64,000 bases of DNA from Candidatus Curtissbacteria bacterium (GTDB lineage Bacteria > Patescibacteriota > Microgenomatia > Curtissbacterales > GWA2-41-24): assembly GCA_030647775.1 (NCBI GenBank), contig JAUSJC010000007.1, positions 50,038 through 114,037 of the forward strand, in the 5' to 3' direction. Every line of letters starts with the position of its first letter. The first letter of the stretch is position 1. Shown here piece after piece: positions 10,014 to 63,859 of the stretch. A model generated the notes under the pieces. It had not been told where the DNA came from. It saw nothing but the letters and a program-made list of their open reading frames with translations, and searched no databases. A program made the position numbers and the translations under genes.

Positions 10014-10265
10014 CTACCCTACTTCTTCTTGCAGTTCTTCGTCAACGTTTAGGGGACCCGGACCATGGGCTTCGTCGCCGTGCAAACCGACCTTTTTGAG
10101 TTCTTCGTCAATGTCCGGGGACTCGGAAGTTGTGGCGTCGCCGGAAAAAACATCTTCCTCGCCGGTTACAGAAGGAGGCGCAACCGGGTCTTGAAATTGG
10201 TTTTCCTCTGTCCCGGTGTCATTGATATTCGGAGCGTTTGGAATTGTGTGGTCGTCCGGAGCCAT
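10014..10265 (-). CDS. hypothetical acidic low-complexity protein
   Basis: 83-aa ORF rich in D/E/P/T; may not be coding. Confidence 0.25.
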   Translation of the reverse strand: MAPDDHTIPNAPNINDTGTEENQFQDPVAPPSVTGEEDVFSGDATTSESPDIDEELKKVGLHGDEAHGPGPLNVDEELQEEVG

Positions 10266-11964: not shown

Positions 11965-12279
11965 CACTATTGGCATTTTTTAAATTTAGCTTGTTTGTAC
12001 AATCCGAAAGGGGTTCGAAGATTAAATATCACAAAAAGGCATAGCTTCGAGACGGGTTCGAAGATAGGACTACAGTATAATTTGATCTAAGTTAACCTAA
12101 TTCTAACCAAAAGATAACCTAATTCAAGTCAACCAGATACGCACAAACTTGACGCAGTTTGATCTAAATGGATACAATACTTGACGTAGTTTGTGCTATT
12201 GCCATTTTTTGCCGGGGGCATTTAAGATATCTATAGATATCTGCACTTTAATTAATTACGGGTAGGGTAAAAGAAACAG

Positions 12280-12368
12280 TCCTGCCGACGAGATTCGAAC
12301 TCGCAAAAACCGTGTCACGGGTTAGTAGCTTGATAGGCCACCGCGTCTACCAGTTGCGCCACAGCAGG
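12280..12368 (-). tRNA. class II (long variable arm) tRNA of uncertain identity, embedded in a 13-bp leader/trailer inverted repeat
   Basis: Acceptor CCUGCUG/CGGCAGG, 3-bp D-stem with GG D-loop, variable stem-loop CCGU-GAC-ACGG, T-loop GAGTTCGAATCTC. The best fold gives anticodon loop CUAUCAA (formal anticodon AUC), which matches no Leu/Ser/Tyr/Sec isoacceptor. Confidence 0.5.
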
Positions 12369-12827
12369 GCAACGTCTTTTACCCTATCCTCAATTAATTT
12401 TTAAGGTTCTCCTACAAAAAGGCACCTTGCCTTCCGGCTTAGGTGCTCGATTCTTCTCTATTTAGTCTGCACCCACAACTTTTATTTTCAGGGCTATCTC
12501 GCACCTCCTCGATAGCTCACCGTTTACCTATTAATTTATACTGCCCTTATTATGAAAATGTGGCATTTGGCATGCAGACTGAATTTCACGAATATGCCAA
12601 AAGCACAATATATTGTGGTCTAATCTTAGTATATACACAACTGAAAATAATAATCAAGCGCTTTTATCATTTCCGGCCGCCACAGACCCGGTAGCGGGTC
12701 TAGTTTCGCTTTACCTTGCCAAAAAGCCTATTTAATTCTGCTCAGTTTAATTTTTGGAGTAAATCGTTAATATATTGGATTTCAATAGCTGTAAGGGTTC
12801 GAATATCGCTCCATAGACCCGACCAAG

Positions 12828-19622: not shown

Positions 19623-19778
19623 TAAAATACTCTCCTGATTTATAATTGTTTTGCGGGGTGTGGTTCAATATACAGTGCCATGCGGTTCTCGTTCTGCAAT
19701 GCAGAACTGTGGGCCTAGGTAGAATGCGGGATTAGTTGATCGGCTCAACATTCGCTTTCCCCGCCTGCCAGAGCCTAT

Positions 19779-22559: not shown

Positions 22560-22731
22560 GGGGGAATGACAACATTGGCGGTGGCTATCGGACGGTTTAT
22601 TTTGCCTCTCCTGGGCTTGATAAGCCCCCATTAATTTTCTAAAATGGGCTATAATCTGCATGAAGAAGCGGGGTTCGGAATAAGCATATCTTGCGATTCT
22701 AAGAATCTAAATTTGCGTCTCCCGCTCCAGC

Positions 22732-22834
22732 GCCCGCGTAGCTCAACGGATAGAGCAGTCGCGTTCTAAGCGATTGTGGGGGTACGCTTTTTCGCGTAGC
22801 GAAAAACTCGAGAAGTCAGATCCCTCCGCGGGCA
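22732..22834 (+). tRNA. tRNA-Arg(TCT)-like gene carrying a roughly 35-nt hairpin insertion in the T-loop
   Basis: Collinear with the canonical tRNA-Arg(TCT) at 29913..29985 through the acceptor, D-arm and anticodon arm (loop GUUCUAA). The T-loop TTCGAAT is replaced by 'T-ACGCTTTTTCGCGTAGCGAAAAACTCGAGAAGTCAG-AT'; the T-stem (GGGGG/CCCTC) and acceptor are preserved. Confidence 0.5.
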
Positions 22835-22914
22835 CAGGAAATTATGGCGTGTAGCGGAAGGATTGGGCTCTGCCCGATGCCTACCCACCCCGACTTTTCG
22901 CGCGCTAAATTCCA

Positions 22915-23000
22915 AAAGTACCGGGTGCAGGCAAGCGGAGCTGTACCAAAAAAATCCGAAGTGCTATTGCCCTGAGTTTATCGAATGGGCTAAAATTAGC
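22915..23000. repeat. 87-bp direct repeat, copy 1 (promoter/5'UTR-like), upstream of the DUF4258 toxin gene
   Basis: Shares 'ATCCGAAGTGCTATTGCCCTGAGTTTATCGAATGGGCTAAAATTAGC' (47/47) with 23583..23667, and the upstream 40 nt at about 80% identity. Confidence 0.7.
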
Positions 23001-29912: not shown

Positions 29913-29985
29913 GCGCCTGTAGCTCAATGGATAGAGCACTCGCGTTCTAAGCGATTGGTTGGGGGTTCGAATCCCTCCAGGCGCA
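29913..29985 (+). tRNA. tRNA-Arg(TCT), canonical copy
   Basis: Acceptor GCGCCTG/CAGGCGC, anticodon loop GUUCUAA, T-loop GGTTCGAATCC. Confidence 0.75.
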
Positions 29986-29995
29986 CATAAAATTA

Positions 29996-30075
29996 ATCGC
30001 GTTCTAAGCGAATGATTGGGGGTTCGCTTTTTTCGCGCAGCGAAAAACTCGAGAAGTCAGATCCCTCCAGGCGCA
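29996..30075 (+). other. tRNA-Arg(TCT) 3'-half fragment (anticodon stem to 3' end) carrying the T-loop hairpin insertion; att-like
   Basis: 'TCGCGTTCTAAGCGAATGATTGGGGGTTCG-CTTTTTTCGCGCAGCGAAAAACTCGAGAAGTCAG-ATCCCTCCAGGCGCA'; the same insertion as at 22732..22834 with compensatory changes in its stem. Confidence 0.5.
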
Positions 30076-30244
30076 CACACGTCTTGCTCCGACGTAAACG
30101 CTTCAGTTTCTCTCATGTATAATATTTTTAGTGAAGATTTCCGGCGGGCTTGTTGTTAATCTTATTGCAGGTTTAAAAGGACTTATGTCAAAAACATATA
30201 CCAAAAATTAAGAAAGATGTTTGTGGAGATGAATAAAAATTACT

Positions 30245-37836: not shown

Positions 37837-39753
37837 CTACAAGTGGTACTTTTTTCTGCTCCTCGCGGTTTTTTTGTAAAGAATAAGCCCGGCGGCGATG
37901 ATTAAAACCGTTATGAGCATGCTCACTAAAAAGCTTTTTAGGAAAATAAGGTTATAGATGGGAAAAGCAGAAACCGGAAGAGCAATTTGGGTACCAGCAT
38001 AGCTTAAAGTGAGCGTATCATTTGAGGAGCCAAAAATGGCCGGGTTTGTAAGTCTGAACTGGAAGCTTCTTTTGGCATAGGGCGGCAAAAGGGCTATTTC
38101 AACAGAATTATCTGTCGGTTGCGGTTTTGCAATATCGGTAATCCTGCGCAGAGTATATGACGTTAGCGTAAGGGATTTTCCAAAAATTGAGGTATTGCCG
38201 GCATTTTCCAGCCTGGCTATAACAGAAACGGGAATGCCGGAAATTATTTTTTGGGGAGCACTTAGGGAAAGCTCGGGTATGACACTTGGCGTCGGAAGGT
38301 CCTGGGCAAATTCGATGGCAATATCTTTGCCAAGATCACCGCTTCTTTTATAGCTTCCGGCAGGGTAAGGGGTTTGGGATGATACTCCCCTTTGAACGAA
38401 AGTAATATGGTTAAAATCCAGTTTTTTAAAATAATCGAGGCCGCCGGAGGTTGAACCCCACGTCGGGTCAACTTGAACCCAGCCCAGCTTATCGTCCCAA
38501 TATTCGGGCCAAGCGTGCAGAACGTCACCCGGAAAAAGAGCCAGCGAAAGAGGCCTTAGGCGCTCGTTTTGCGTATAGGCATAACCTTCAACTTCGCGGG
38601 CGGGAATACCTGCCGCCCTGGCGATAGCGATGAAAAGGTCCGTAAATTCTGTACAGATGGCATCATTAGGACTGGCGGCCGCCGCGGCAGCCCCTTTTCT
38701 TTCAACCCTTGTTTGCTTCAGGCGGTCCTCATTGTAGCTTAAGTATGTTGTGACGAAGTTATAAATTGCCTGCGGGTTTTTGAGCTCTTGAGCCTTTTTT
38801 TTAATGAATGCTGAATCTGTTTCCCAGTATTTTTGTTTTGTTGTATAAAGTTCCCTGTCGCTTTGGCCCAGAGGAGAGTAGATATTCCTGAAGGGCCTGC
38901 TAAAAACTTCTACGAAGCCCGTAGCCGTGACATCAATCTTTTGGTGCGATGAAAGTTTGTAAAGAGCCAGGAAGTTATTATCTTTGTCGACAATGACATC
39001 ACGCGGTGCGGGGTCCAGTTTCTGGATGACAATTTTTTGATAATTGTTATCCGGCGGCAGGGCGATTTCCCGCATTTGGCTTGTCAAATTATTATTTTCA
39101 AGGTGGTAGTTCAGGGTAAAGGAAAAAACCTGTTTTTCGCCGAAAGATATGGCAATGCCTGATTCAACCAGTTGATCTTTGCCAAAGGTGAAGGATTGAC
39201 GAATCCCAACCTTCTCGCTTGTAAGCGGTGACGGGACCGCAAAAGCAATTTGCCCAAAGGATATGGGGGTCGAAACCGCAGCGCTGTAATCGGTTATATC
39301 GGCCGAGCGGGCGAGGCGCGGAATTGAAACTTCCCAAATCTGGCCGGATTTGGAGGCAAGTTCACCCGAGGTATACGTAAGGGTCCAGGGGAGGGTTTTT
39401 TCGATACCAATGACCTTTTGGTTAAATTTAACGCTGATTGTGGTCAAGTTGTTTTCGAATTTCGCCTCTGTTTCCAATGGACCCGTTGCATCCTGGGCTT
39501 TGACGTTTTCTACTTTGGTCGAGCCGATTTTCAGTTCAAATTTATCGGCGTAATAATTGGAAGTTTTATTTTTTAAGACTATTTGTTGGGTAACTTGGGT
39601 TTTGCCCGTTTCGTCGACATCGTACTCGACCTTGTAAGTTGTTCCAAATTCGCCGGCGGCGTGAGTGACGGGAGTGAATAGTGCGTAGTGCACAGTGATT
39701 AGTGAGAGGAGGACGAAAGCGGCAAGACAAAAGCGAACAAGAAAACGCATCAA
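37837..39753 (-). CDS. transglutaminase-like domain protein, membrane anchored at both ends
   Basis: 'CTEFTDLFIAIARAAGIPAREVEGY' catalytic Cys region, 'HAWPEYW' His, N- and C-terminal TM segments. Confidence 0.7.
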   Translation of the reverse strand: MMRFLVRFCLAAFVLLSLITVHYALFTPVTHAAGEFGTTYKVEYDVDETGKTQVTQQIVLKNKTSNYYADKFELKIGSTKVENVKAQDATGPLETEAKFENNLTTISVKFNQKVIGIEKTLPWTLTYTSGELASKSGQIWEVSIPRLARSADITDYSAAVSTPISFGQIAFAVPSPLTSEKVGIRQSFTFGKDQLVESGIAISFGEKQVFSFTLNYHLENNNLTSQMREIALPPDNNYQKIVIQKLDPAPRDVIVDKDNNFLALYKLSSHQKIDVTATGFVEVFSRPFRNIYSPLGQSDRELYTTKQKYWETDSAFIKKKAQELKNPQAIYNFVTTYLSYNEDRLKQTRVERKGAAAAAASPNDAICTEFTDLFIAIARAAGIPAREVEGYAYTQNERLRPLSLALFPGDVLHAWPEYWDDKLGWVQVDPTWGSTSGGLDYFKKLDFNHITFVQRGVSSQTPYPAGSYKRSGDLGKDIAIEFAQDLPTPSVIPELSLSAPQKIISGIPVSVIARLENAGNTSIFGKSLTLTSYTLRRITDIAKPQPTDNSVEIALLPPYAKRSFQFRLTNPAIFGSSNDTLTLSYAGTQIALPVSAFPIYNLIFLKSFLVSMLITVLIIAAGLILYKKTARSRKKYHL

Positions 39754-39832
39754 GAACTAGTGTCAGGTATAAGAGAGCTTATTGTCAACTCCGTTGATAA
39801 GCACGTATCAGGTGTCAAGTCCGCCCACTATT

Positions 39833-39926
39833 GTCATCCTGAATTTATTTCAGGATCTTGGTGAAGATGCTGAAATATACAGTGCCATGCGCCCTCGCTT
39901 CGCTCGGGGCTAGAGTTCAGCATGAC
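39833..39926. repeat. repeat family B copy 1 (about 95-nt double-hairpin element with 11-bp terminal inverted repeats)
   Basis: 'GTCATCCTGAA-TTTAT-TTCAGGATC...GATGCTGAA-ATATACAGTGCCATGCGCCC...-TTCAGCATGAC'; about 85% identical to 42888..42985. Confidence 0.7.
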
Positions 39927-39936
39927 ATTTATGGTT

Positions 39937-42876
39937 TTATAATTCCCTTGCTAAAAATTGTCCGGTGTAGGAGGTTTTGATTTTACTAACTTCTTTAGGT
40001 GTACCGACAGCGATGACCTGACCGCCGCCATCGCCGCCTTCGGGGCCAAGGTCGATTATCCAATCGGTGTTTTTAATGACATCCAAGTTGTGCTCTATGA
40101 TTACCACCGTGTTCCCCTGCCCGACCAAACGTTTGAGGATTAAAAGTAAGCGTTCGATATCGGCAAAGTGCAAACCCGTTGTCGGTTCATCCAGAATATA
40201 CATTGTGCGGCCTGTGGCGCGTTTAGAAAGCTCTGTTGCCAGCTTTACCCTTTGGGCTTCACCGCCGGATAAAGTCGGGGCCGGCTGACCAAGGTGGATA
40301 TATCCCAGACCGACGTCATAAATTGTTTCCAGTTTTATTTTAATTTGTGGAATGTTTTCGAAAAAACGTAAGGATTCCTCGACGGTCATATCCAAAACTT
40401 CAGAAATATTCTTGTTTTTATAATGGATTTCTAATGCCTCTTCGTTGTACCTTTTACCGCTGCAAACTTCACAGTCGACATAGACGTCGGGGAGAAACTG
40501 CATTTCAATTTTAACCTGGCCTTCTCCCTCGCAGGCTTCACAGCGGCCGCCCTTAACGTTGAAAGAGAATCGGCCGGGTTTATAACCCCTAATTCTTGCG
40601 TCCGTTGTTTGGGCAAAAAGCTCGCGGATATGGGTAAAGGCGCCGGTATAAGTTGCCGGGTTAGAACGGGGTGTCCTGCCGATTGGAGACTGGTCGATTA
40701 AGATAACTTTGTCCAGGTTTTCGGCGCCCCTTATTAAATCGTGCTGTCCGGCTTTTTGGCGGGAGCGAAAGATTTCCGTGGCAAGGGCATTATAAAGGAT
40801 GTCGTGAATCAGGGTTGATTTGCCGGAGCCGGAGACACCGGTGATACAAATAAACTTGCCCAGCGGAAATTCGACGTCTATATTTTTCAAATTATGTTCG
40901 GTAGCACCAATGATTGTTAAGGTCTGATCAGCGCCTATATTGTTCGAGCGATAGCGAGAACTAAAAGTAGGTAGTTCTCGATTCGCTCCGCTCCCTCGAA
41001 CAATATCGGCAGATGTAACTTCTACTTTTTTCTTCCCCGAAAGGTATTTGCCGGTAATCGATGCCGGGTTTTTCATAATTTGTGCCGGAGTGCCCTGGGC
41101 AATAATTTTACCGCCGTGTTCCCCCGCCGCGGGTCCAAAATCCAGGATCTCATCCGACTCCATCATCATTTCCCTATCATGCTCAACAACTATAACGGTG
41201 TTCTGGAGGTCCCTTAAGCGTTTTAAAGTGTTAATAAGCCGGATATTGTCCCTTTGGTGGAGACCGATAGACGGCTCGTCCAGAACATAGAGAACGCCGG
41301 AAAGGCCCGAACCGATTTGGGAAGCAAGACGAATCCTCTGGGCTTCACCGCCGGCTAAGGTATTGGCAGTTCTGGAAATGGTTAGGTAATCTAAGCCGAC
41401 ATCAACCAGAAACTGCACCCTGGCGATTAATTCTTTAAAAATGGGTTTGGCGACAATTTTTTCCCTTTCGGATAATTTGTCTTCGCTAGTGGATAAGTCT
41501 TTTAGCCAGATGCTTAAATTGGTGATGGAAAGATCCGTAACTTGGGCAATGGAATTTTTGTCAATGCTGACGGAAAGCGCTTCCGGTTTAAGCCGCGCGC
41601 CGCGACAGGCATCGCAAATATCAATCCTCATAAACTTTTCCGATTCTTTGCGCACAAAATCGGATTCTGTTTCACCGTATTTTCGCTCGAGTTGCGGGAT
41701 TACACCTTCATACTGGGTATCCCAGGTAACGACTTTGCCAAAACGGTTGGGGCCTTTAACACGATAAACTTGATCTTTGTCCCCATAAAGAATTAACTTC
41801 CTTTCGTCATCTGAAAGTTCGCCGACAGATTTATTGATATCGATTGCGTTTTCGCGGCAGACAGTTTCCAGAACGCGCCACGACCACGAATCGCTTTGGA
41901 CCAGACGGGCCCATGGCAGGATGGCGCCTTCGGCGATTGTTAGGTTTTTGTTAAAGACAAGATCCGGATCAACTTTGCGCAGAGTTCCAAGACCACTACA
42001 AAGCTCACAGGCGCCGTGAGGAGAATTGAAAGAGAAAAATCGCGGTTCGATTTCAGGAAGAGATATGTTGTCAACCGGGCAAGCAAATTTTTCGGAAAAA
42101 AGGTGGTCTTTTAATTCCTTTGGATAAGCGGGTATATCAAAAGATTTATCCAGGATTTCGGAAATAATGAGGCTGCCTTCACCGAGCTTTAGGGCCTGTT
42201 CGACAGACTGGGAGAGACGGCTTTTGTCACTGGGTAAAACCAGTCTATCGATGACTGCTTCTATTGAATGCTTATTGGTTTTAATAAGAACAAAGTCCTC
42301 GTCGTTATCCTTAACCTGGCCATCGACTCTGCTATAGGTGTAACCTTTTTTCACCAGATCGCGGAAAAGATCTTTGAACTCCCCTTTCCTGTCTTTAACT
42401 ACCGGTGCCAGAATTAAAACACGGGTACCCGGGCCTTTTTTATCGGTAGCGAGTTTTTGGATTTCATCGACTATTTGTTCTTTAGATCTATGAGAAATTT
42501 CGCGGCCGCAGGTTGGACAATGCGGATGGCCGACTCTGGCAAAAAGTAAACGCAAGTAATCGTAAATTTCAGTAACCGTACCAACTGTGGAGCGCGGGTT
42601 GTGGGAAGCGGCTTTTTGGTCAATGGAAATGGCAGGTGATAAGCCTTCTATAGAATCGACGTCCGGTTTATCCATGACTCCGAGGAACTGGCGGGCGTAA
42701 GATGCCAGTGATTCGACATAACGGCGCTGGCCTTCGGCGTAAATTGTGTCAAACGCCAGAGATGATTTGCCTGAACCGGAAATACCGGTAAAAACCACTA
42801 ACTTATTCTTGGGAATCTCAACCGAGACGTTTTTTAAATTATGCTCGCGGGCACCTTTGATAATGAGTTTATCCAT
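39937..42876 (-). CDS. uvrA: excinuclease ABC subunit A
   Basis: Two ABC ATPase modules ('GISGSGKSS', 'GVSGSGKST'), zinc-finger CxxC pairs, signature 'LSGGE' motifs; 979 aa. Confidence 0.95.
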
Positions 42877-42887
42877 GATTGATTTGT

Positions 42888-42985
42888 GTCATCCTGAACT
42901 CGTTTCAGGATCTCTTTTGCGTTAGATGCCGAAATATACAGTGCCATGCGCCCTTGCTTCGCTCGGAGCTAAAGTTCGGCATGAC
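42888..42985. repeat. repeat family B copy 2
   Basis: See copy 1; located immediately upstream of the uvrA start. Confidence 0.7.
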
Positions 42986-43069
42986 GAAGTGCAAAGCGAA
43001 TCTACAATTCTAGCACCAAATACAATATTTGGGCAAGAGTTATTGCTGTGAATTTACTTTGACCGCTTG

Positions 43070-43899
43070 GATTTGGTCGCGGAGGATGGCTGCCTGGCTA
43101 ATGCAGTGGCTAATGCAGGTCCGACCTGTTTAGCTTTTGTTTGCTCTCCTTCTCTTCAAATTCCAAAGTTAATTCTGCCAGAACTTCTGCGGAATTAATC
43201 TGGTAATCTTCCACAAAACTCTTGTACGATGAATTGTTTTGCAAGAAGGCTGTTTTTGCAATATTGAAGAAAGCAAGTATTTCTTCCGGGTGGATCCATG
43301 TAGTGTTTCTGGATCCTAAATATTCACCATAGCTAGAATAAGGATATGACAACAGGTCGGACCTGTTTTGATCGTCTAATGTGGCAATACCAGCCGGGTT
43401 TAAATGAATATACCGAGTTAGGTGAAGTAAGTAGGAATCTTCGGTTACAAGAACTCCTTTATATTTTCCTTGAAAAAGTGGCCCTACTCTTTCGTGACGT
43501 TCGTTAAAGTACTTTGTGTAAGCATTACCAATTCTTCTCATAAAACCGACTATCCCGTACTTAGTATTCTGTTTAAGCAATAAATGAAAATGGTTCGGCA
43601 TTAAGGCATAGCAAATAAGTTGTACTTCTTCGAAGATCTTCGATTGTCTTACAGGTCGGACCTGTTTGGGCGTAGGTGGTAGTAAATAGCTTTTAAGGTA
43701 TGAGAGGAAAATTTTGTAATCCATTTCGTCGTCAAAAACTATTCGTTTATCTACTCCACGGTTGTACACGTGATAAAAACCACCCTCTAAGTATTGTTTG
43801 ACGGAGTTTTTCGAAGGCATGCAGAATATAATAATACACCAAAGCAGGTCGGACCTGTTATGGGGATTTGAGTGACATGATTTGGTCGCGGAGGATGGC
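43070..43899. mobile_element. IS200/IS605-family (RAYT-like Y1 transposase) element bounded by perfect 21-bp direct repeats and carrying four 17-bp palindromes
   Basis: Direct repeat 'GATTTGGTCGCGGAGGATGGC' at 43070..43090 and 43879..43899. Palindrome 'AACAGGTC(G/C)GACCTGTT' at 43115..43130, 43351..43367, 43651..43666 and 43844..43860. The insertion truncates the uvrB 3' end. Confidence 0.65.
43110..43820 (-). CDS. IS200-like Y1 (HuH) tyrosine transposase / RAYT
   Basis: HuH motif 'MPNHFHLLL' and catalytic Tyr region 'RYIHLNP'; likely start at the Met of 'MPSKNSVKQYLEGGF'. Two of the palindromes lie inside the reading frame, translated as 'NRSDL' and 'VRPV'. Confidence 0.65.
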   Translation of the reverse strand: MPSKNSVKQYLEGGFYHVYNRGVDKRIVFDDEMDYKIFLSYLKSYLLPPTPKQVRPVRQSKIFEEVQLICYALMPNHFHLLLKQNTKYGIVGFMRRIGNAYTKYFNERHERVGPLFQGKYKGVLVTEDSYLLHLTRYIHLNPAGIATLDDQNRSDLLSYPYSSYGEYLGSRNTTWIHPEEILAFFNIAKTAFLQNNSSYKSFVEDYQINSAEVLAELTLEFEEKESKQKLNRSDLH

Positions 43900-57175: not shown

Positions 57176-57236
57176 GTCATGCTGAACTCGTTTCAGCATC
57201 TTAAATAGAAGAGATCCCGAAACAGGTCCGGGATGA
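57176..57236. repeat. repeat family B variant copy
   Basis: 'GTCATGCTGAA-CTCGT-TTCAGCATC' plus 'ATCCCG-AAACAGGTC-CGGGAT-GAC'; the loop shares 'AACAGGTC' with the RAYT-element palindrome arm. Confidence 0.5.
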
Positions 57237-57439
57237 CAAGAGTAACCATTTTGCCCCGTTGACCCCGCCAATCTTACTTCTCGCCTTTCCCGCCTGCAAC
57301 CCGCCCAGAACTGTGTAGCTGTTGGCGGGTAGCATTGCGGGCAGGTCACTATTATTCATACACGGCTCGAAGAGCGATTTTGGAGGGGCAAGCAAATTTT
57401 GATGTATTGACAAGTATTTTTACACGCTATATATTGCCT

Positions 57440-60263: not shown

Positions 60264-61715
60264 ATGGACAACAATCAACGAGTCATTATCCATGCGGACT
60301 TGAATAGTTTCTTTGCAACGGCCGAACAGCAAACAAACCCTGCCCTACGCGGTAAACCGGTAGGAGTTATCAAAGCCCCGGGCAGAACTTGCATTATCGC
60401 CGCTTCCGTTGAAGCTAAAAAGTTTGGCGTCGGTACTGGCAGCCGCGTTTACGATGCCAAGAAACTCTGTCCCGAGATTATTCTGGTGCCGGCTAACTTT
60501 AGCAAATACGAGAAAATGACTTACCGTTTTATTGATATTTGCAAAACTTATTCACCGGCTTGCGAGGTCTTTTCACTGGACGAGTGTTTTATCGATGTAA
60601 CGGAAACGGAATTTATCTGGCCGCGCCCGCCACGCAATGCCAGTCTTGAACAACTCGCTTGGCTGGAAATGGGGAAAGCATTGCGAGGCAATGCGGGCGG
60701 GAAGAATGTTTTTAACATTGCCTTTGAAATTAAGGACAGGTTAAGGCGAGAAGTCGGCGATTATATGACTTGCTCCGTCGGTGTTTCCCACAACAGGTTT
60801 TTGGCCAAGCTTGCTTCTTCCCAAATTAAACCCGATGGGCTTTTTTGGATAACGGACGATAATAAACTTGAAGTTTTGGATAGAAGCAAACTGACGGATG
60901 TCTGCGGCCTTGGGGACGGACTGTATCAGCATCTGACCCGCGTCGGGATTGATAGTTTTCCAATACTTAGGGCAAAATCCATAACATTTTTGCAAGAACA
61001 TTTCGGGCCGCACTGGTCTTTACATCTTTATAACTTAGCGCGGGGAATTGATGATTCAGGGGTAGGATCGATTCTCGAAATTCCCGACGCCAAAAGCGTT
61101 GGGCGCACTTATACAACCCACCGCAATTTATATAGAAAAGAAGAAGTTTGGCGCTTAACCCGTAATCTATGTGAGGAGACGGCGGCCAAAGCCCGCAAGA
61201 TGCATTTGGCGGGCCGGTACGTAGGGTTTTGTCTTCGCGGCGGGCCTGCCCGCATCGCTACCCGCCAACAGCTACACAGTTCTGGGCGGGTTGCTGGCGG
61301 GGAAGTGTCAGAGTGGGGACATTTGACTTTAAAAAATTATATTAACGACGGCAAAATTCTTTTTGATCTATGCTTGCAAATTTCTAAGAACTGGAACTTC
61401 TTCCAACAGCCCTTCGACTTCGCTCAGGTCTTCGACTCCGAGGTCGCTCAGACTCGAGGAGGTCTTCGACCTTATGTGCGTTTTTGCGGAGTAACACTGG
61501 GGATGCTTACCAAATCGGCGTATCTCCCCTCTCCCCTTTTCGTTTCTGATAGCCGGCGGGTAGATCTAATAAAAACAATTGACAAGGTTAACGGCAAGTA
61601 CGGAGACTACACCATTTACCCGGGCCAACTGCTTGGAACGAGCTTAATTCGGCCGGAGGTAAACGGTTTTTTCGGCGACCGCAAATACCGGTTAGACTTT
61701 GCAAGCAAAAATTAA
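60264..61715 (+). CDS. dinB: Y-family DNA polymerase (DinB/Pol IV-like)
   Basis: 'VIIHADLNSFFATAEQ' catalytic Asp motif, 'SLDECFIDVT', 'SVGVSHNRFLAKLAS'; probable start at 'MDNNQRVII'. Confidence 0.8.
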   Translation: MDNNQRVIIHADLNSFFATAEQQTNPALRGKPVGVIKAPGRTCIIAASVEAKKFGVGTGSRVYDAKKLCPEIILVPANFSKYEKMTYRFIDICKTYSPACEVFSLDECFIDVTETEFIWPRPPRNASLEQLAWLEMGKALRGNAGGKNVFNIAFEIKDRLRREVGDYMTCSVGVSHNRFLAKLASSQIKPDGLFWITDDNKLEVLDRSKLTDVCGLGDGLYQHLTRVGIDSFPILRAKSITFLQEHFGPHWSLHLYNLARGIDDSGVGSILEIPDAKSVGRTYTTHRNLYRKEEVWRLTRNLCEETAAKARKMHLAGRYVGFCLRGGPARIATRQQLHSSGRVAGGEVSEWGHLTLKNYINDGKILFDLCLQISKNWNFFQQPFDFAQVFDSEVAQTRGGLRPYVRFCGVTLGMLTKSAYLPSPLFVSDSRRVDLIKTIDKVNGKYGDYTIYPGQLLGTSLIRPEVNGFFGDRKYRLDFASKN

Positions 61716-62382: not shown

Positions 62383-63567
62383 TCAGACAAATGTTAACGC
62401 GGTACCTTTCTTCTGCATCCGGCCGGTCCTGCCAATCCTGTGGATGTAATCATCATAGGAAGCGGGCATATCGTAGTTTATCACATGGCTTACGTCTTCG
62501 ATATCGAGCCCGCGTGAGGCAACGTCGGTAGCCAGAAGTATATGAATTTGATTGGTACGGAATTGATCAAGTGTTTTTTGCCGTTGGCTTTGGCTTTTGT
62601 TGCCGTGAATTGCCCCCGCCTTAAAACCGCGCCCGGCAAGTTCATCGGAAAGCCTTTGGACTCCCCATTTAGTCCGGCCAAAAATTAATACCTTATTAAA
62701 GCCTTCCTGGATTAATAAGTCGTGGAGTTTGTCTACTTTTTGTTTGCTGTTTTCAACCTTAATAATTTCCTGGCTGATATTTTCAACCGTATCCCTAACT
62801 TTAACCGAAATGGTTACGGGGTCGGTGACAAATGTTTGGATAATTTCTTTGACCTTTGAAGAAACGGTTGCCGAAAAGAAAAGCGACTGACGCCTCCCGG
62901 GAAGAAGCGAAATTAAGTACTTGATGTCTTTGATAAAGCCGATATCGACCATGCGGTCCGTTTCGTCCAGTACCACACTAGCAAAGCCGCCAAGGTGCAG
63001 GCAGTTCTGGCGGACAAGGTCGATTATTCTTCCCGGTGTACCAATGACAAAATTAGGCCGATAGGCAATTTCCGTTCTCTGCCTTCTCATACTGGTCCCG
63101 CCAATACAAAGGGCCGATTTTATACCAAACCCCCTGGCGAATAGGACCAGTTCGTCCTGAATTTGTAAAGCCAGTTCGCGGGTTGGAGTGATAATCAGAA
63201 CATTTTGAGTCCTGTCCTTTATAACTTTATCGATAAGCGGAATTAAAAACGCGGCGGTTTTACCCGTGCCGGTGTTGGCAATGCCGATAACGTCCTTGCC
63301 TTCCAGAATTGCCTCAATAGCCTGATCCTGGATCGGGGTTGTTTCAGTGTAATTTTTGGCGGCAATATTTCTTTTAATGCCCTCATCGATAGCGAAATCC
63401 GCAAATTTATGTTTGGGGACATAGGCCTCGCGGATGGGCACATCGCTGGGCATATTTTTGCTTTGGCCGGCCGTAATTGCCCATAAAAGGCCCTGGTCGG
63501 TTCTGGCACTCGGCCTTGGAGAAAATCTTCTCCTGAAACCTCCTCTTGGTCTAAATCTTTGCGGCAT
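62383..63567 (-). CDS. DEAD-box ATP-dependent RNA helicase with Arg-rich N-terminal extension
   Basis: Q-motif, 'ANTGTGKTAAF' (motif I), 'DETD' (motif II variant), 'SAT', 'HRIGRTGR'. Confidence 0.85.
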   Translation of the reverse strand: MPQRFRPRGGFRRRFSPRPSARTDQGLLWAITAGQSKNMPSDVPIREAYVPKHKFADFAIDEGIKRNIAAKNYTETTPIQDQAIEAILEGKDVIGIANTGTGKTAAFLIPLIDKVIKDRTQNVLIITPTRELALQIQDELVLFARGFGIKSALCIGGTSMRRQRTEIAYRPNFVIGTPGRIIDLVRQNCLHLGGFASVVLDETDRMVDIGFIKDIKYLISLLPGRRQSLFFSATVSSKVKEIIQTFVTDPVTISVKVRDTVENISQEIIKVENSKQKVDKLHDLLIQEGFNKVLIFGRTKWGVQRLSDELAGRGFKAGAIHGNKSQSQRQKTLDQFRTNQIHILLATDVASRGLDIEDVSHVINYDMPASYDDYIHRIGRTGRMQKKGTALTFV

Positions 63568-63859
63568 GTTATTTTTGTTTGTTTTTAGAAAAAAGTTGAA
63601 GAAGTAAACCTACTTTAGGCCCGCAGACCACGTAGTGGACGAGGACCGCAAGCTCTGCTTAATTAAGAGTTGTATTTGTGAATAGGGAGAAAGATACTTT
63701 AGTAAAAATAAAACAATAGACTATCTTTATCTTGTCTAATCAAAAATTATTCGAAGTTAAGCAGAGTTACTGCTTCAATCTGCAAATCTAAAATACAGTA
63801 TAGCAGAAAACGCGAATTAATTCAACTATAAGCCCACTTCGTGAGCTTGCGTCCTTGGG

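Follow-up and report, generated by a model that had tools for sequence, protein, structure and literature searches.

Repetitive extragenic palindromes (REPs) are short noncoding repeats that multiply within genomes; those carrying a CGTC tag were defined by Di Nocera, De Gregorio, and Rocco (2013, BMC Genomics 14:522, PMC3733652). In that definition, each unit has an unpaired CGTC tag, often TGTC or CCTC; a stem of 8 to 9 bp that opens with A and T, each paired with its complement; a loop of 4 to 5 nt; and a 3-nt unpaired tail with the consensus CCA. The units occur mainly as head-to-head (HH) dimers with the tags outside, with heterodimers in the CGTC-2 type, and the listed hosts are Proteobacteria, Chlorobi, Bacteroidetes, Spirochaetes, and Thermotogae (PMC3733652). 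The same authors equated the Rickettsia palindromic elements RPE-4 and RPE-6 with CGTC-4 and CGTC-1. No enzyme that mobilizes CGTC-tagged REPs is known. Here, we analyzed a 64-kb stretch of DNA (the window; all window coordinates refer to its positions 1 to 64,000) from Candidatus Curtissbacteria, a host within the Patescibacteria of the candidate phyla radiation (CPR), in which uvrA is bracketed by two repeats, A and B. Related or pattern-matched loci, designated by L numbers, were used for comparison. A, B, and a third element, C, are very likely HH dimers of CGTC-tagged REPs, closest to the CGTC-2 type, with A and B as lineage-specific insertions at uvrA. The class itself is already described; what is new is its occurrence in Patescibacteria.

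The elements and the bracketed gene are as follows.

39833..39926 (94 nt), plus strand: REP dimer A, located 3' of uvrA; the closest relatives (L126, L128, and L129) lack it in their uvrA-transglutaminase spacer. Left unit: tag GTC 39833-35 (T before it), stem ATCCTGAA 39836-43, loop TTTAT 39844-48, stem TTCAGGAT 39849-56. Spacer: 39857-66. Right unit: stem ATGCTGAA 39867-74, 41-nt loop 39875-39915, stem TTCAGCAT 39916-23, tag GAC 39924-26.
39937..42876, minus strand: uvrA, 979 aa, the bracketed gene, identified as UvrA.
42888..42985 (98 nt), plus strand: REP dimer B, between the putative uvrA promoter and the ATG; absent from the uvrB-uvrA spacer of the same three relatives. Left unit: GTC 42888-90, ATCCTGAA 42891-98, loop CTCGT 42899-42903, TTCAGGAT 42904-11. 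Spacer: 42912-25. Right unit: ATGCCGAA 42926-33, 41-nt loop 42934-74, TTCGGCAT 42975-82, GAC 42983-85 (minus-strand tag CGTC).
57176..57237 (62 nt), plus strand: REP dimer C, short and of canonical form, with the xseA start 189 nt downstream. Left unit: GTC-ATGCTGAA-CTCGT-TTCAGCAT, then a 14-nt spacer. Right unit: ATCCCGAA-ACAGG-TCCGGGAT-GAC, with one stem mismatch.

A preliminary description of the window had reported two copies of about 85% identity, each with two hairpins, on either side of uvrA. This was borne out. A and B lie in direct orientation on the same strand, 3.06 kb apart, and align with 84% column identity and a single 4-nt indel; their 3' 62 nt are 92% identical without a gap, and the longest perfect match is 24 nt. 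The similarity ends sharply at GTCAT...ATGAC, and the flanking sequences are unrelated. The distances to uvrA, given as 11 and 12 nt, are each 1 nt too long: 10 nt separate the end of A from the stop codon (39937-39939), and 11 nt separate the start codon, which ends at 42876, from B. Both copies begin with GTCATCCTGAA. The 3' end of A (TTCAGCATGAC) is complementary to the start of A at 10 of 11 positions, and that of B (TTCGGCATGAC) is complementary to the start of B at 9 of 11; what had been called 11-bp terminal inverted repeats is thus the tag plus the stem of two facing units. Hairpin 1 is ATCCTGAA-N5-TTCAGGAT in both copies. The 8-bp stem of hairpin 2, ATGCTGAA/TTCAGCAT in A versus ATGCCGAA/TTCGGCAT in B, shows a compensatory double change and encloses a 41-nt loop with a further small hairpin.

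Two further sites had been proposed as related pieces. The one at 57176..57236 is real and is in fact a complete, shorter dimer of the same kind (C), ending at 57237. The sequence AACAGGTC, said to be common to its loop and to a palindrome at the transposase gene described below, is indeed shared (C has AAACAGGTCCG, which matches the palindrome over 11 nt), but the C loop is only two substitutions away from the canonical AAACAAGTTCG of other genomes. The piece at 19672..19720, in contrast, is not a copy of the element; it has only the loop module in common, at 19667-19719. A 61-nt inverted duplicate (93%) lies 50 nt from dimer C, pairing 57286-57345 (minus strand) with 61245-61305, a piece of a Y-family polymerase gene (aa 359 to 378).

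The anatomy of A, B, and C agrees with the published class. The tags of the six units read TGTC in five cases and CGTC in one (the right unit of B, on the minus strand). All six stems are 8 bp long and AT-initiated (ATCCTGAA, ATGCTGAA, ATGCCGAA, and ATCCCGAA with their complements), with one mismatch in the right unit of C, and four of the six loops are 5 nt long (TTTAT, CTCGT, CTCGT, and ACAGG). All three elements are intergenic heterodimers with the tags facing outward. In the window, the 11-mer GTCATCCTGAA occurs five times with at most one mismatch (0.83 expected), and there are three dimers, with 0.64 hairpins expected from shuffles. The CGTC-2 HH heterodimers of PMC3733652 share with these elements the CGTC/TGTC tag, the 8-bp stem starting with A/T, the 5-nt loop (in four of the six units), the length, though not the sequence, of the 3-nt unpaired tail, the outward-facing unlike units, and a mostly intergenic position near gene ends. 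They also share an occurrence in repair genes: such an element is found inside uvrA of a close relative (L129), and REPs inside uvrA, uvrB, and other repair genes are reported from several other phyla (PMC3733652). In L129 (11393-11452; also in L130), where UvrA is 87% identical, the in-frame 22-aa insertion is a CGTC-type REP dimer, CCATCCTGAACTTGTTTCAGGATCCA...GATTTTTCGGCTTCGCCTCAGAATGACA. The window elements differ in their Patescibacteria host, their CTN tail, the 41-nt module in one unit of A and B, and their low density in 64 kb.

The remaining comparisons are looser. RPE-4 and RPE-6 belong to the same tagged-hairpin superfamily and can sit in frame inside genes, like the dimer in uvrA of L129, and a Rickettsia endosymbiont is among the loci with the exact hairpin (L078); however, all three window dimers are intergenic, and their stem and loop lengths are not those of RPE-4 and RPE-6. 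With the miniature inverted-repeat transposable elements (MITEs) of DDE insertion sequences, A and B have in common that they are short and noncoding with inverted ends, but here the "inverted repeat" is itself a hairpin, and no related full-length insertion sequence was seen. Rfam scans of the window at the gathering threshold and of 39700-43200 at E values up to 10 found only tRNAs in the window and nothing relevant at the repeats; the Pedo-repair motif, considered as a candidate, had no match in these scans.

Several observations weigh against this assignment. The loops of two units (the right ones of A and B) measure 41 nt, against the 4 to 5 nt of the definition. The tails are CTN (CTT, CTC, and CTA) rather than the published CCA, although, among the scan matches listed (see below), CCA tails occur in alpha-proteobacterial loci and CTN tails in AT-rich genomes. 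Copy number and density are those of the 64-kb window; the contigs of L121, L124, and L125 end within the hairpin, as is expected of repeats. CGTC-type hairpins with different stems lie at the same spot of the uvrA leader in L121, L124, and L125, which could reflect selection for a hairpin there rather than neutral insertion. Finally, the putatively mobile status of the dimers rests on a presence/absence comparison of sequences.

The possibility that the repeats are ordinary intrinsic terminators that happen to look alike is negligible. A simple scan does list hairpin 1 of B on the plus strand as terminator-like (ATCCTGAACTCGTTTCAGGAT followed by CTCTTTTGCG). No plus-strand gene ends there, however, and no T run follows the hairpins in the sense of uvrA. 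Terminator function cannot account for 92% identity across 62 nt, for the common tags, or for the conservation across phyla, and the hairpins are not unrelated terminators.

Next, we compared the filled sites at uvrA with those of the closest relatives available (L126/L127, L128, and L129/L130, of which L126, L128, and L129 were used). On the minus strand, the order in the window is an acyltransferase gene, uvrB, an IS200-like Y1 transposase gene resembling those of REP-associated tyrosine transposases (RAYTs), copy B, uvrA, copy A, a transglutaminase-like gene, and uvrC. Past the acyltransferase gene, toward the side where uvrB starts, is lexA on the other strand, and xseA (with dimer C before it) and the Y-family polymerase gene lie further along the window. 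The RAYT-like and UvrA proteins each have a 100% identical counterpart in a Candidatus Curtissbacteria metagenome-assembled genome. The three relatives keep the order lexA, uvrB, uvrA, transglutaminase-like gene, uvrC, and their proteins are 87 to 91% (UvrA), 90 to 93% (UvrB), 79 to 87% (transglutaminase-like), and 74 to 84% (UvrC) identical to those of the window. Their uvrB-uvrA spacer is 55 to 58 nt in L126 and L128 and 410 nt in L129, where it holds only a small unannotated open reading frame (ORF); the uvrA-transglutaminase spacer is 57 to 72 nt in all three. No CGTC hairpin was found in 10 to 23 kb of these loci.

In the alignments with these relatives, the insertions are bordered by two conserved flanks that match up, TAGAATTGTAGATTC and ACTTGACACCTGATACG. 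The -10 region TAGAATTGTAGATTC is followed by the ATG about 13 to 17 nt on in the relatives, whereas in the window copy B comes between them; ACTTGACACCTGATACG stands almost directly after the uvrA stop codon in L129 and after copy A in the window. The empty sites show that A and B are insertions into the two very short spacers that border uvrA, confined to this Curtissbacteria lineage. The sites are flanked by AACCATAAA/ATAGTGGGCGG at A and by GCACTT/CAAATCAATC at B, and no target-site duplication was found at A or B in comparison with the empty sites of the three relatives; of the earlier description of the elements as REP/MITE-like, the REP part is supported and the MITE part is not. A and B would be sister copies of one subfamily that arrived by the normal mode of spread of the family, most likely through the cutting and joining of single-stranded hairpin DNA without target duplication. 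The filled and empty pairs provide clean examples of recent insertion without such duplication.

The direct repeats had also been suggested to allow recombinational deletion or amplification of uvrA. This is possible in principle, and the orientation, the 3.06-kb distance, and the 92% identity over 62 nt would suit it, but we found no evidence of it. A perfect match of 24 nt is about the lower limit for RecA-dependent exchange. The suggested check of related genomes for loss of the gene found none: uvrA is kept in all eight related uvrB/uvrA loci that extend past the uvrA start. The companion idea, that the repeats mark uvrA as imported cargo, is ruled out by synteny together with the similar identities of UvrA, UvrB, UvrC, and the transglutaminase-like protein to those of the relatives, which indicate that uvrA is native. 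We therefore regard a bracket that serves to delete or amplify uvrA, or that marks it as cargo, as very unlikely.

The RAYT-like gene 125 nt from copy B raises the question of whether the dimers depend on it. A uvrB remnant and the putative uvrA promoter lie in between. The features of this region are as follows.

43070..43090, minus strand: the downstream member of two identical 21-nt direct repeats of the uvrB 3' end (the other is at 43879-43899); the pair brackets a 788-nt RAYT cassette (43091-43878).
43110..43820, minus strand: RAYT-like Y1 (HUH) transposase gene, 236 aa, with the HUH motif HFH in PNHFHLL and the catalytic Tyr in RYIHLNP.
43115..43129: palindrome ACAGGTCSGACCTG, copy 1 of 4, over the RAYT stop codon.
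43352-43366 and 43651-43665: palindrome ACAGGTCSGACCTG, copies 2 and 3, in frame inside the RAYT ORF.
43844-43858: palindrome ACAGGTCSGACCTG, copy 4, between the uvrB stop codon and the RAYT start codon.

The Y1 gene appears intact from its sequence: the protein matches Pfam Y1_Tnp (E = 8e-8), and HFH and YIHLNP are invariant in 12 homologues. With the NCBIfam RayT model, it scores 36 bits against a cutoff of 80. The AACAGGTCSGACCTG palindrome (ACAGGTCSGACCTG) that accompanies the gene differs from the CGTC hairpin; its four copies all lie in 43115-43858 and nowhere else in the 64 kb. AACAGGTCSGACCTG is found at the RAYT stop codon in five relatives, at the same four positions in L121, and at two further, dispersed sites in L122. 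The two internal palindromes encode QVRP and NRSDL. Because homologues with as little as 53% identity conserve these peptides, QVRP and NRSD(L), recent insertion of the palindromes is ruled out. Elsewhere, other palindromes occupy the same codons (AACAGGTGAGACCTGTT in L122, ACCTATCGATAGGT in L175, and AACCTGGTACCAGGTT in L178), and the in-frame palindromes of relatives lie at 10173 and 10463 in L122, 9676 in L123, 10444 in L175, and 10458 in L178. The family of RAYT-like genes thus keeps an in-frame palindrome at the QVRP codons, the NRSDL codons, or both, with a lineage-specific sequence. This is the pattern expected if each RAYT lineage has its own cognate palindrome, and AACAGGTCSGACCTG looks like the REP of this RAYT-like gene. 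The L175 gene has repeated palindromes of its own on its flanks. In both L175 and L178, the RAYT-like gene occupies a conserved place in a type IV pilus cluster, and a second copy in L178 lies beside gyrB.

The dimers resemble REPINs (REP doublets forming hairpins), known from GTAG-type REPs together with RAYTs (Bertels and Rainey 2011, PMC3116915), in having two inverted palindromes plus a spacer that can fold into one long hairpin, in lacking target duplication, and in having one Y1 HUH transposase gene close by, with short palindromes on its own flanks. They differ in that the tag is CGTC/TGTC rather than GTAG, that the palindromes flanking the RAYT-like gene are unlike the dimers, and that the window protein is only a distant RayT relative (36 bits versus 80). 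The preliminary description had proposed that the dimers were possibly mobilized by the RAYT. They would then be nonautonomous partners, cut and pasted as single-stranded hairpins by the adjacent enzyme. The proximity of an apparently intact HUH/Tyr enzyme gene, the REPIN-like architecture, and the insertion without target duplication fit such a system. Moreover, among the Curtissbacteria loci examined, CGTC hairpins near uvrA occur only with the clade of 81 to 100% identical RAYTs (the window, L121, L124, and L125), and the three RAYT-less closest relatives have none.

We nevertheless consider mobilization by this RAYT-like gene unlikely. AACAGGTCSGACCTG flanks the gene on both sides, whereas the CGTC dimer lies on one side only; AACAGGTCSGACCTG is at the RAYT stop codon in all five relatives and dispersed in L122; and homologues that are more distant have, at these positions, different palindromes specific to their lineages. 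In 15 to 20 kb of L122 and L123, which do carry the RAYT, there is no CGTC hairpin. Of the at least 120 hairpin loci among the matches listed, only one holds a homologue of the window RAYT, 1.3 kb away. CGTC-tagged REPs never flank tyrosine transposase genes in the survey of Di Nocera et al. (PMC3733652), and the RayT score falls short of the cutoff. The proposal that the RAYT mobilizes the dimers is thus not supported.

The native uvrB end (DQIQAVKV...) is now a remnant downstream of the RAYT, and longer remnants of the uvrB 3' end follow the RAYT in L124 and L125. The closest relatives by UvrB (90 to 93%) lack the RAYT, while the RAYT-bearing relatives have a UvrB of 70 to 76% and a RAYT of 81 to 82% identity. 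This suggests that the cassette moved between lineages or was lost by recombination between the 21-nt repeats. This RAYT-like cassette, which sits where the 3' end of uvrB is duplicated and keeps conserved palindromes within its reading frame, and the conserved module described below are side products that could matter more than the consequences for uvrA.

For uvrA, we looked at what the two dimers add to its transcript. The putative promoter is as follows.

43007..43036, minus strand: putative uvrA promoter, TTGCCC-18 nt-TAGAAT, its -10 box preceded by TG, from a promoter scan and conservation.

Relatives conserve the -10 box together with the TGTAGATTC that comes after it, and their ATG lies about 13 to 17 nt past this box. 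With B between the putative promoter and the ATG and A just after the stop codon, both are probably cotranscribed with uvrA, and copy B most likely belongs to a uvrA leader about 125 nt long. The dimers would add stable hairpins to the leader and the trailer. They might then be dedicated cis-regulatory RNA structures that tune uvrA mRNA stability or translation in the LexA-linked uvrB-uvrA-uvrC cluster, and the position of B after a conserved promoter-like site, the presence in L121, L124, and L125 of CGTC-type hairpins, differing in their stems, at this leader position, the compensatory nature of the A/B difference in stem 2, and the location of copy A 10 nt past the stop codon are consistent with this. 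In E. coli, REPs that near a stop codon have been reported to affect translation. On the other hand, the closest relatives do with a leader of about 6 to 10 nt and no hairpin, and the same hairpins stand beside unrelated genes in many phyla. The predicted fold of the uvrA leader has no unusual stability compared to shuffles (z = -0.36), with the start codon unpaired, and the G.U-type pairs of the nested module form only on the strand antisense to uvrA. A dedicated regulatory role is decidedly unlikely; any effect on uvrA expression would be a by-product and not the reason for the presence of the repeats. The practical consequence for uvrA is probably small: native to the locus and seemingly intact, the gene has only gained structured untranslated regions. 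Inside uvrA, at about 40935-41006, there is an in-frame, near-perfect palindrome of about 70 nt (RNA fold of -31 kcal/mol) that encodes 23 residues in a length-variable linker; a similar insert is present in P0126 (SPLRSRFRAT).

To place the dimers in a wider context, we scanned genomes (one per species; 596 Gb, both strands) for the exact hairpin GTCATSCTGAA-N5-TTCAGSATC. The pattern, with 18 fixed and 2 twofold positions, was found at at least 120 genome loci (L001 to L120), versus about 4 expected by chance. Hosts among the matches listed include Sphingomonadaceae, Pedobacter, Treponema, several Patescibacteria lineages, Gastranaerophilales, Nitrospirota, Elusimicrobiota, Ignavibacteria, and Rickettsia endosymbionts, among others. 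In most of these loci, the hairpin is one end of a 55- to 130-nt unit whose other end is an inverted, related hairpin ending in (A/G)TGAC. When five stem positions were left free (NNNNNGAA-N5-TTCNNNNNGAC), the listed loci contained 227 occurrences (4 in shuffles), 218 of which were complementary at four or more of the five free positions, and the compensatory pair types at three stem positions were TA/CG, CG/GC/TA, and TA/CG. The exact 25-nt hairpin is thus common to far more phyla than the five reported in 2013, which sharpens the question of how such repeats spread or are maintained. The window elements put a poorly understood REP class into the CPR.

Within the listed loci, the hairpin lies 3' of the neighboring gene in 110 cases and 5' in 68 (178 flanking genes). 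REPs are reported mostly downstream of ORFs, near stop codons, and the placement fits this class. Similarity searches (tblastn) of the window proteins against the listed loci had hinted at an excess of repair genes across phyla; this was dropped after a Pfam census of the 178 flanking genes, which found no such excess (IMS, UvrC, and XseA once each and SMC_N twice, among about 260 families). Aminoacyl-tRNA synthetase genes also appear among the 178 (tRNA-synt_1 three times, tRNA-synt_1b twice, tRNA-synt_1g, and tRNA-synt_2c).

The least ordinary part of the finding is the module nested in A and B. The right-hand 41-nt loop of both copies starts with the 18-mer AATATACAGTGCCATGCG, which also occurs at 19667, followed by a covarying hairpin. 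The copies in the window, with bit scores from a covariance model of the module, are as follows.

39874..39915, plus strand: module in the right hairpin of dimer A (AATATACAGTGCCATGCG, hairpin CCCTCG..CGGGG, CTAG), 46.4 bits.
42933..42974, plus strand: module in the right hairpin of dimer B, 48.5 bits.
19667..19719, plus strand: free-standing module, outside any REP, 45 nt after the end of an Exo_endo_phos gene and 60 nt before tRNA-Gly, 57.5 bits.
63614..63650, minus strand: hairpin-only relative of the module, GCGGTCCTCG..CTGCGGGCCTAA (GCGGTCCTCGTCCACTACGTGGTCTGCGGGCCTAA), without the 5' 14 nt/18-mer, about 47 nt upstream of the ORF 62383..63567.

A metagenome scan for the 18-mer yielded 44 loci, mostly on small contigs, and about 25 of them share the layout of 18-mer, variable-length hairpin, and CTAA. 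In L136 to L141 and L144, a CGTC dimer holds the module in one of its two loops, just like A and B, and elsewhere the module occurs on its own. A canonical REP loop is restored when about 38 nt (GAAATA|...|AGTTC) are taken out, which suggests from the sequence that the module was inserted into it, and the same architecture in L136, L138, L139, L140, and L141 lets the long loops be read as a nested insertion. The loop of one unit in A and B would thus have been expanded by a nested 41-nt module, and this would explain why both are about 95 nt long and so alike. The basal 5-bp helix of the module is paired in 98% of cells, with one pair being GC (13), AU (4), or CG (2). Another helix pair is U.G in 12 of 20 sequences, so that the helix forms on one strand only, which in the window is the strand antisense to uvrA.

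No Rfam family matched the module in the window, in 39700-43200, or in 15 module-bearing loci; a scan of viral contigs for the 18-mer found nothing; and literature searches by sequence words returned no paper on the module, only unrelated primers. A twister or hepatitis delta virus (HDV)-like ribozyme, a dif site, a sigma-54 promoter, and an E. coli-type SOS box were considered; none fits by eye, and there was no covariance-model support.

All three window dimers adjoin repair genes, and palindromes near such genes are found at both flanks of and inside uvrA, in the xseA leader, and at the uvrB 3' end. This association is local, small in number, and post hoc. We considered a linked pair of ideas, namely, that the module (AAUAUACAGUGCCAUGCG plus a covarying hairpin and CUAA) is an undescribed, strand-specific functional element and that palindromes in this lineage are preferentially deposited in and around SOS and excision repair genes; jointly, we find this pair quite unlikely. 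Under the first idea, the module, able to ride in REP loops, could function as a small structured RNA or serve as a site recognized in single-stranded DNA. Under the second, a possible cause is that the HUH enzyme encoded in the uvrB-uvrA cluster acts on repair genes that are single stranded during heavy transcription after damage.

Apart from the repeats at uvrA, a few features of the window are worth recording. Compared with L126 and L129, the region at about 19.7 to 32.8 kb shows rearrangement: tRNA-Gly(tcc) has the opposite orientation, and tRNA-Arg(tct), which directly adjoins it in the relatives, lies 10 kb off at 29913. With partial tRNA-Arg copies at 22722-22836 and 29989-30077 and repeats at 22915/23582 and 29438/31572/32695, this region looks like an element integrated at a tRNA gene. 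ARAGORN called a 90-nt tRNA-Asp with the unusual anticodon atc at 12279-12368 (with a low Rfam tRNA score of 42.5 bits), embedded in a 36-nt inverted repeat (12250-12285 and 12364-12399). Further direct-repeat pairs lie at 2744-2954/5079-5289 (211 nt, 81%) and at 14127-14216/17899-17988 (90 nt, 70%).

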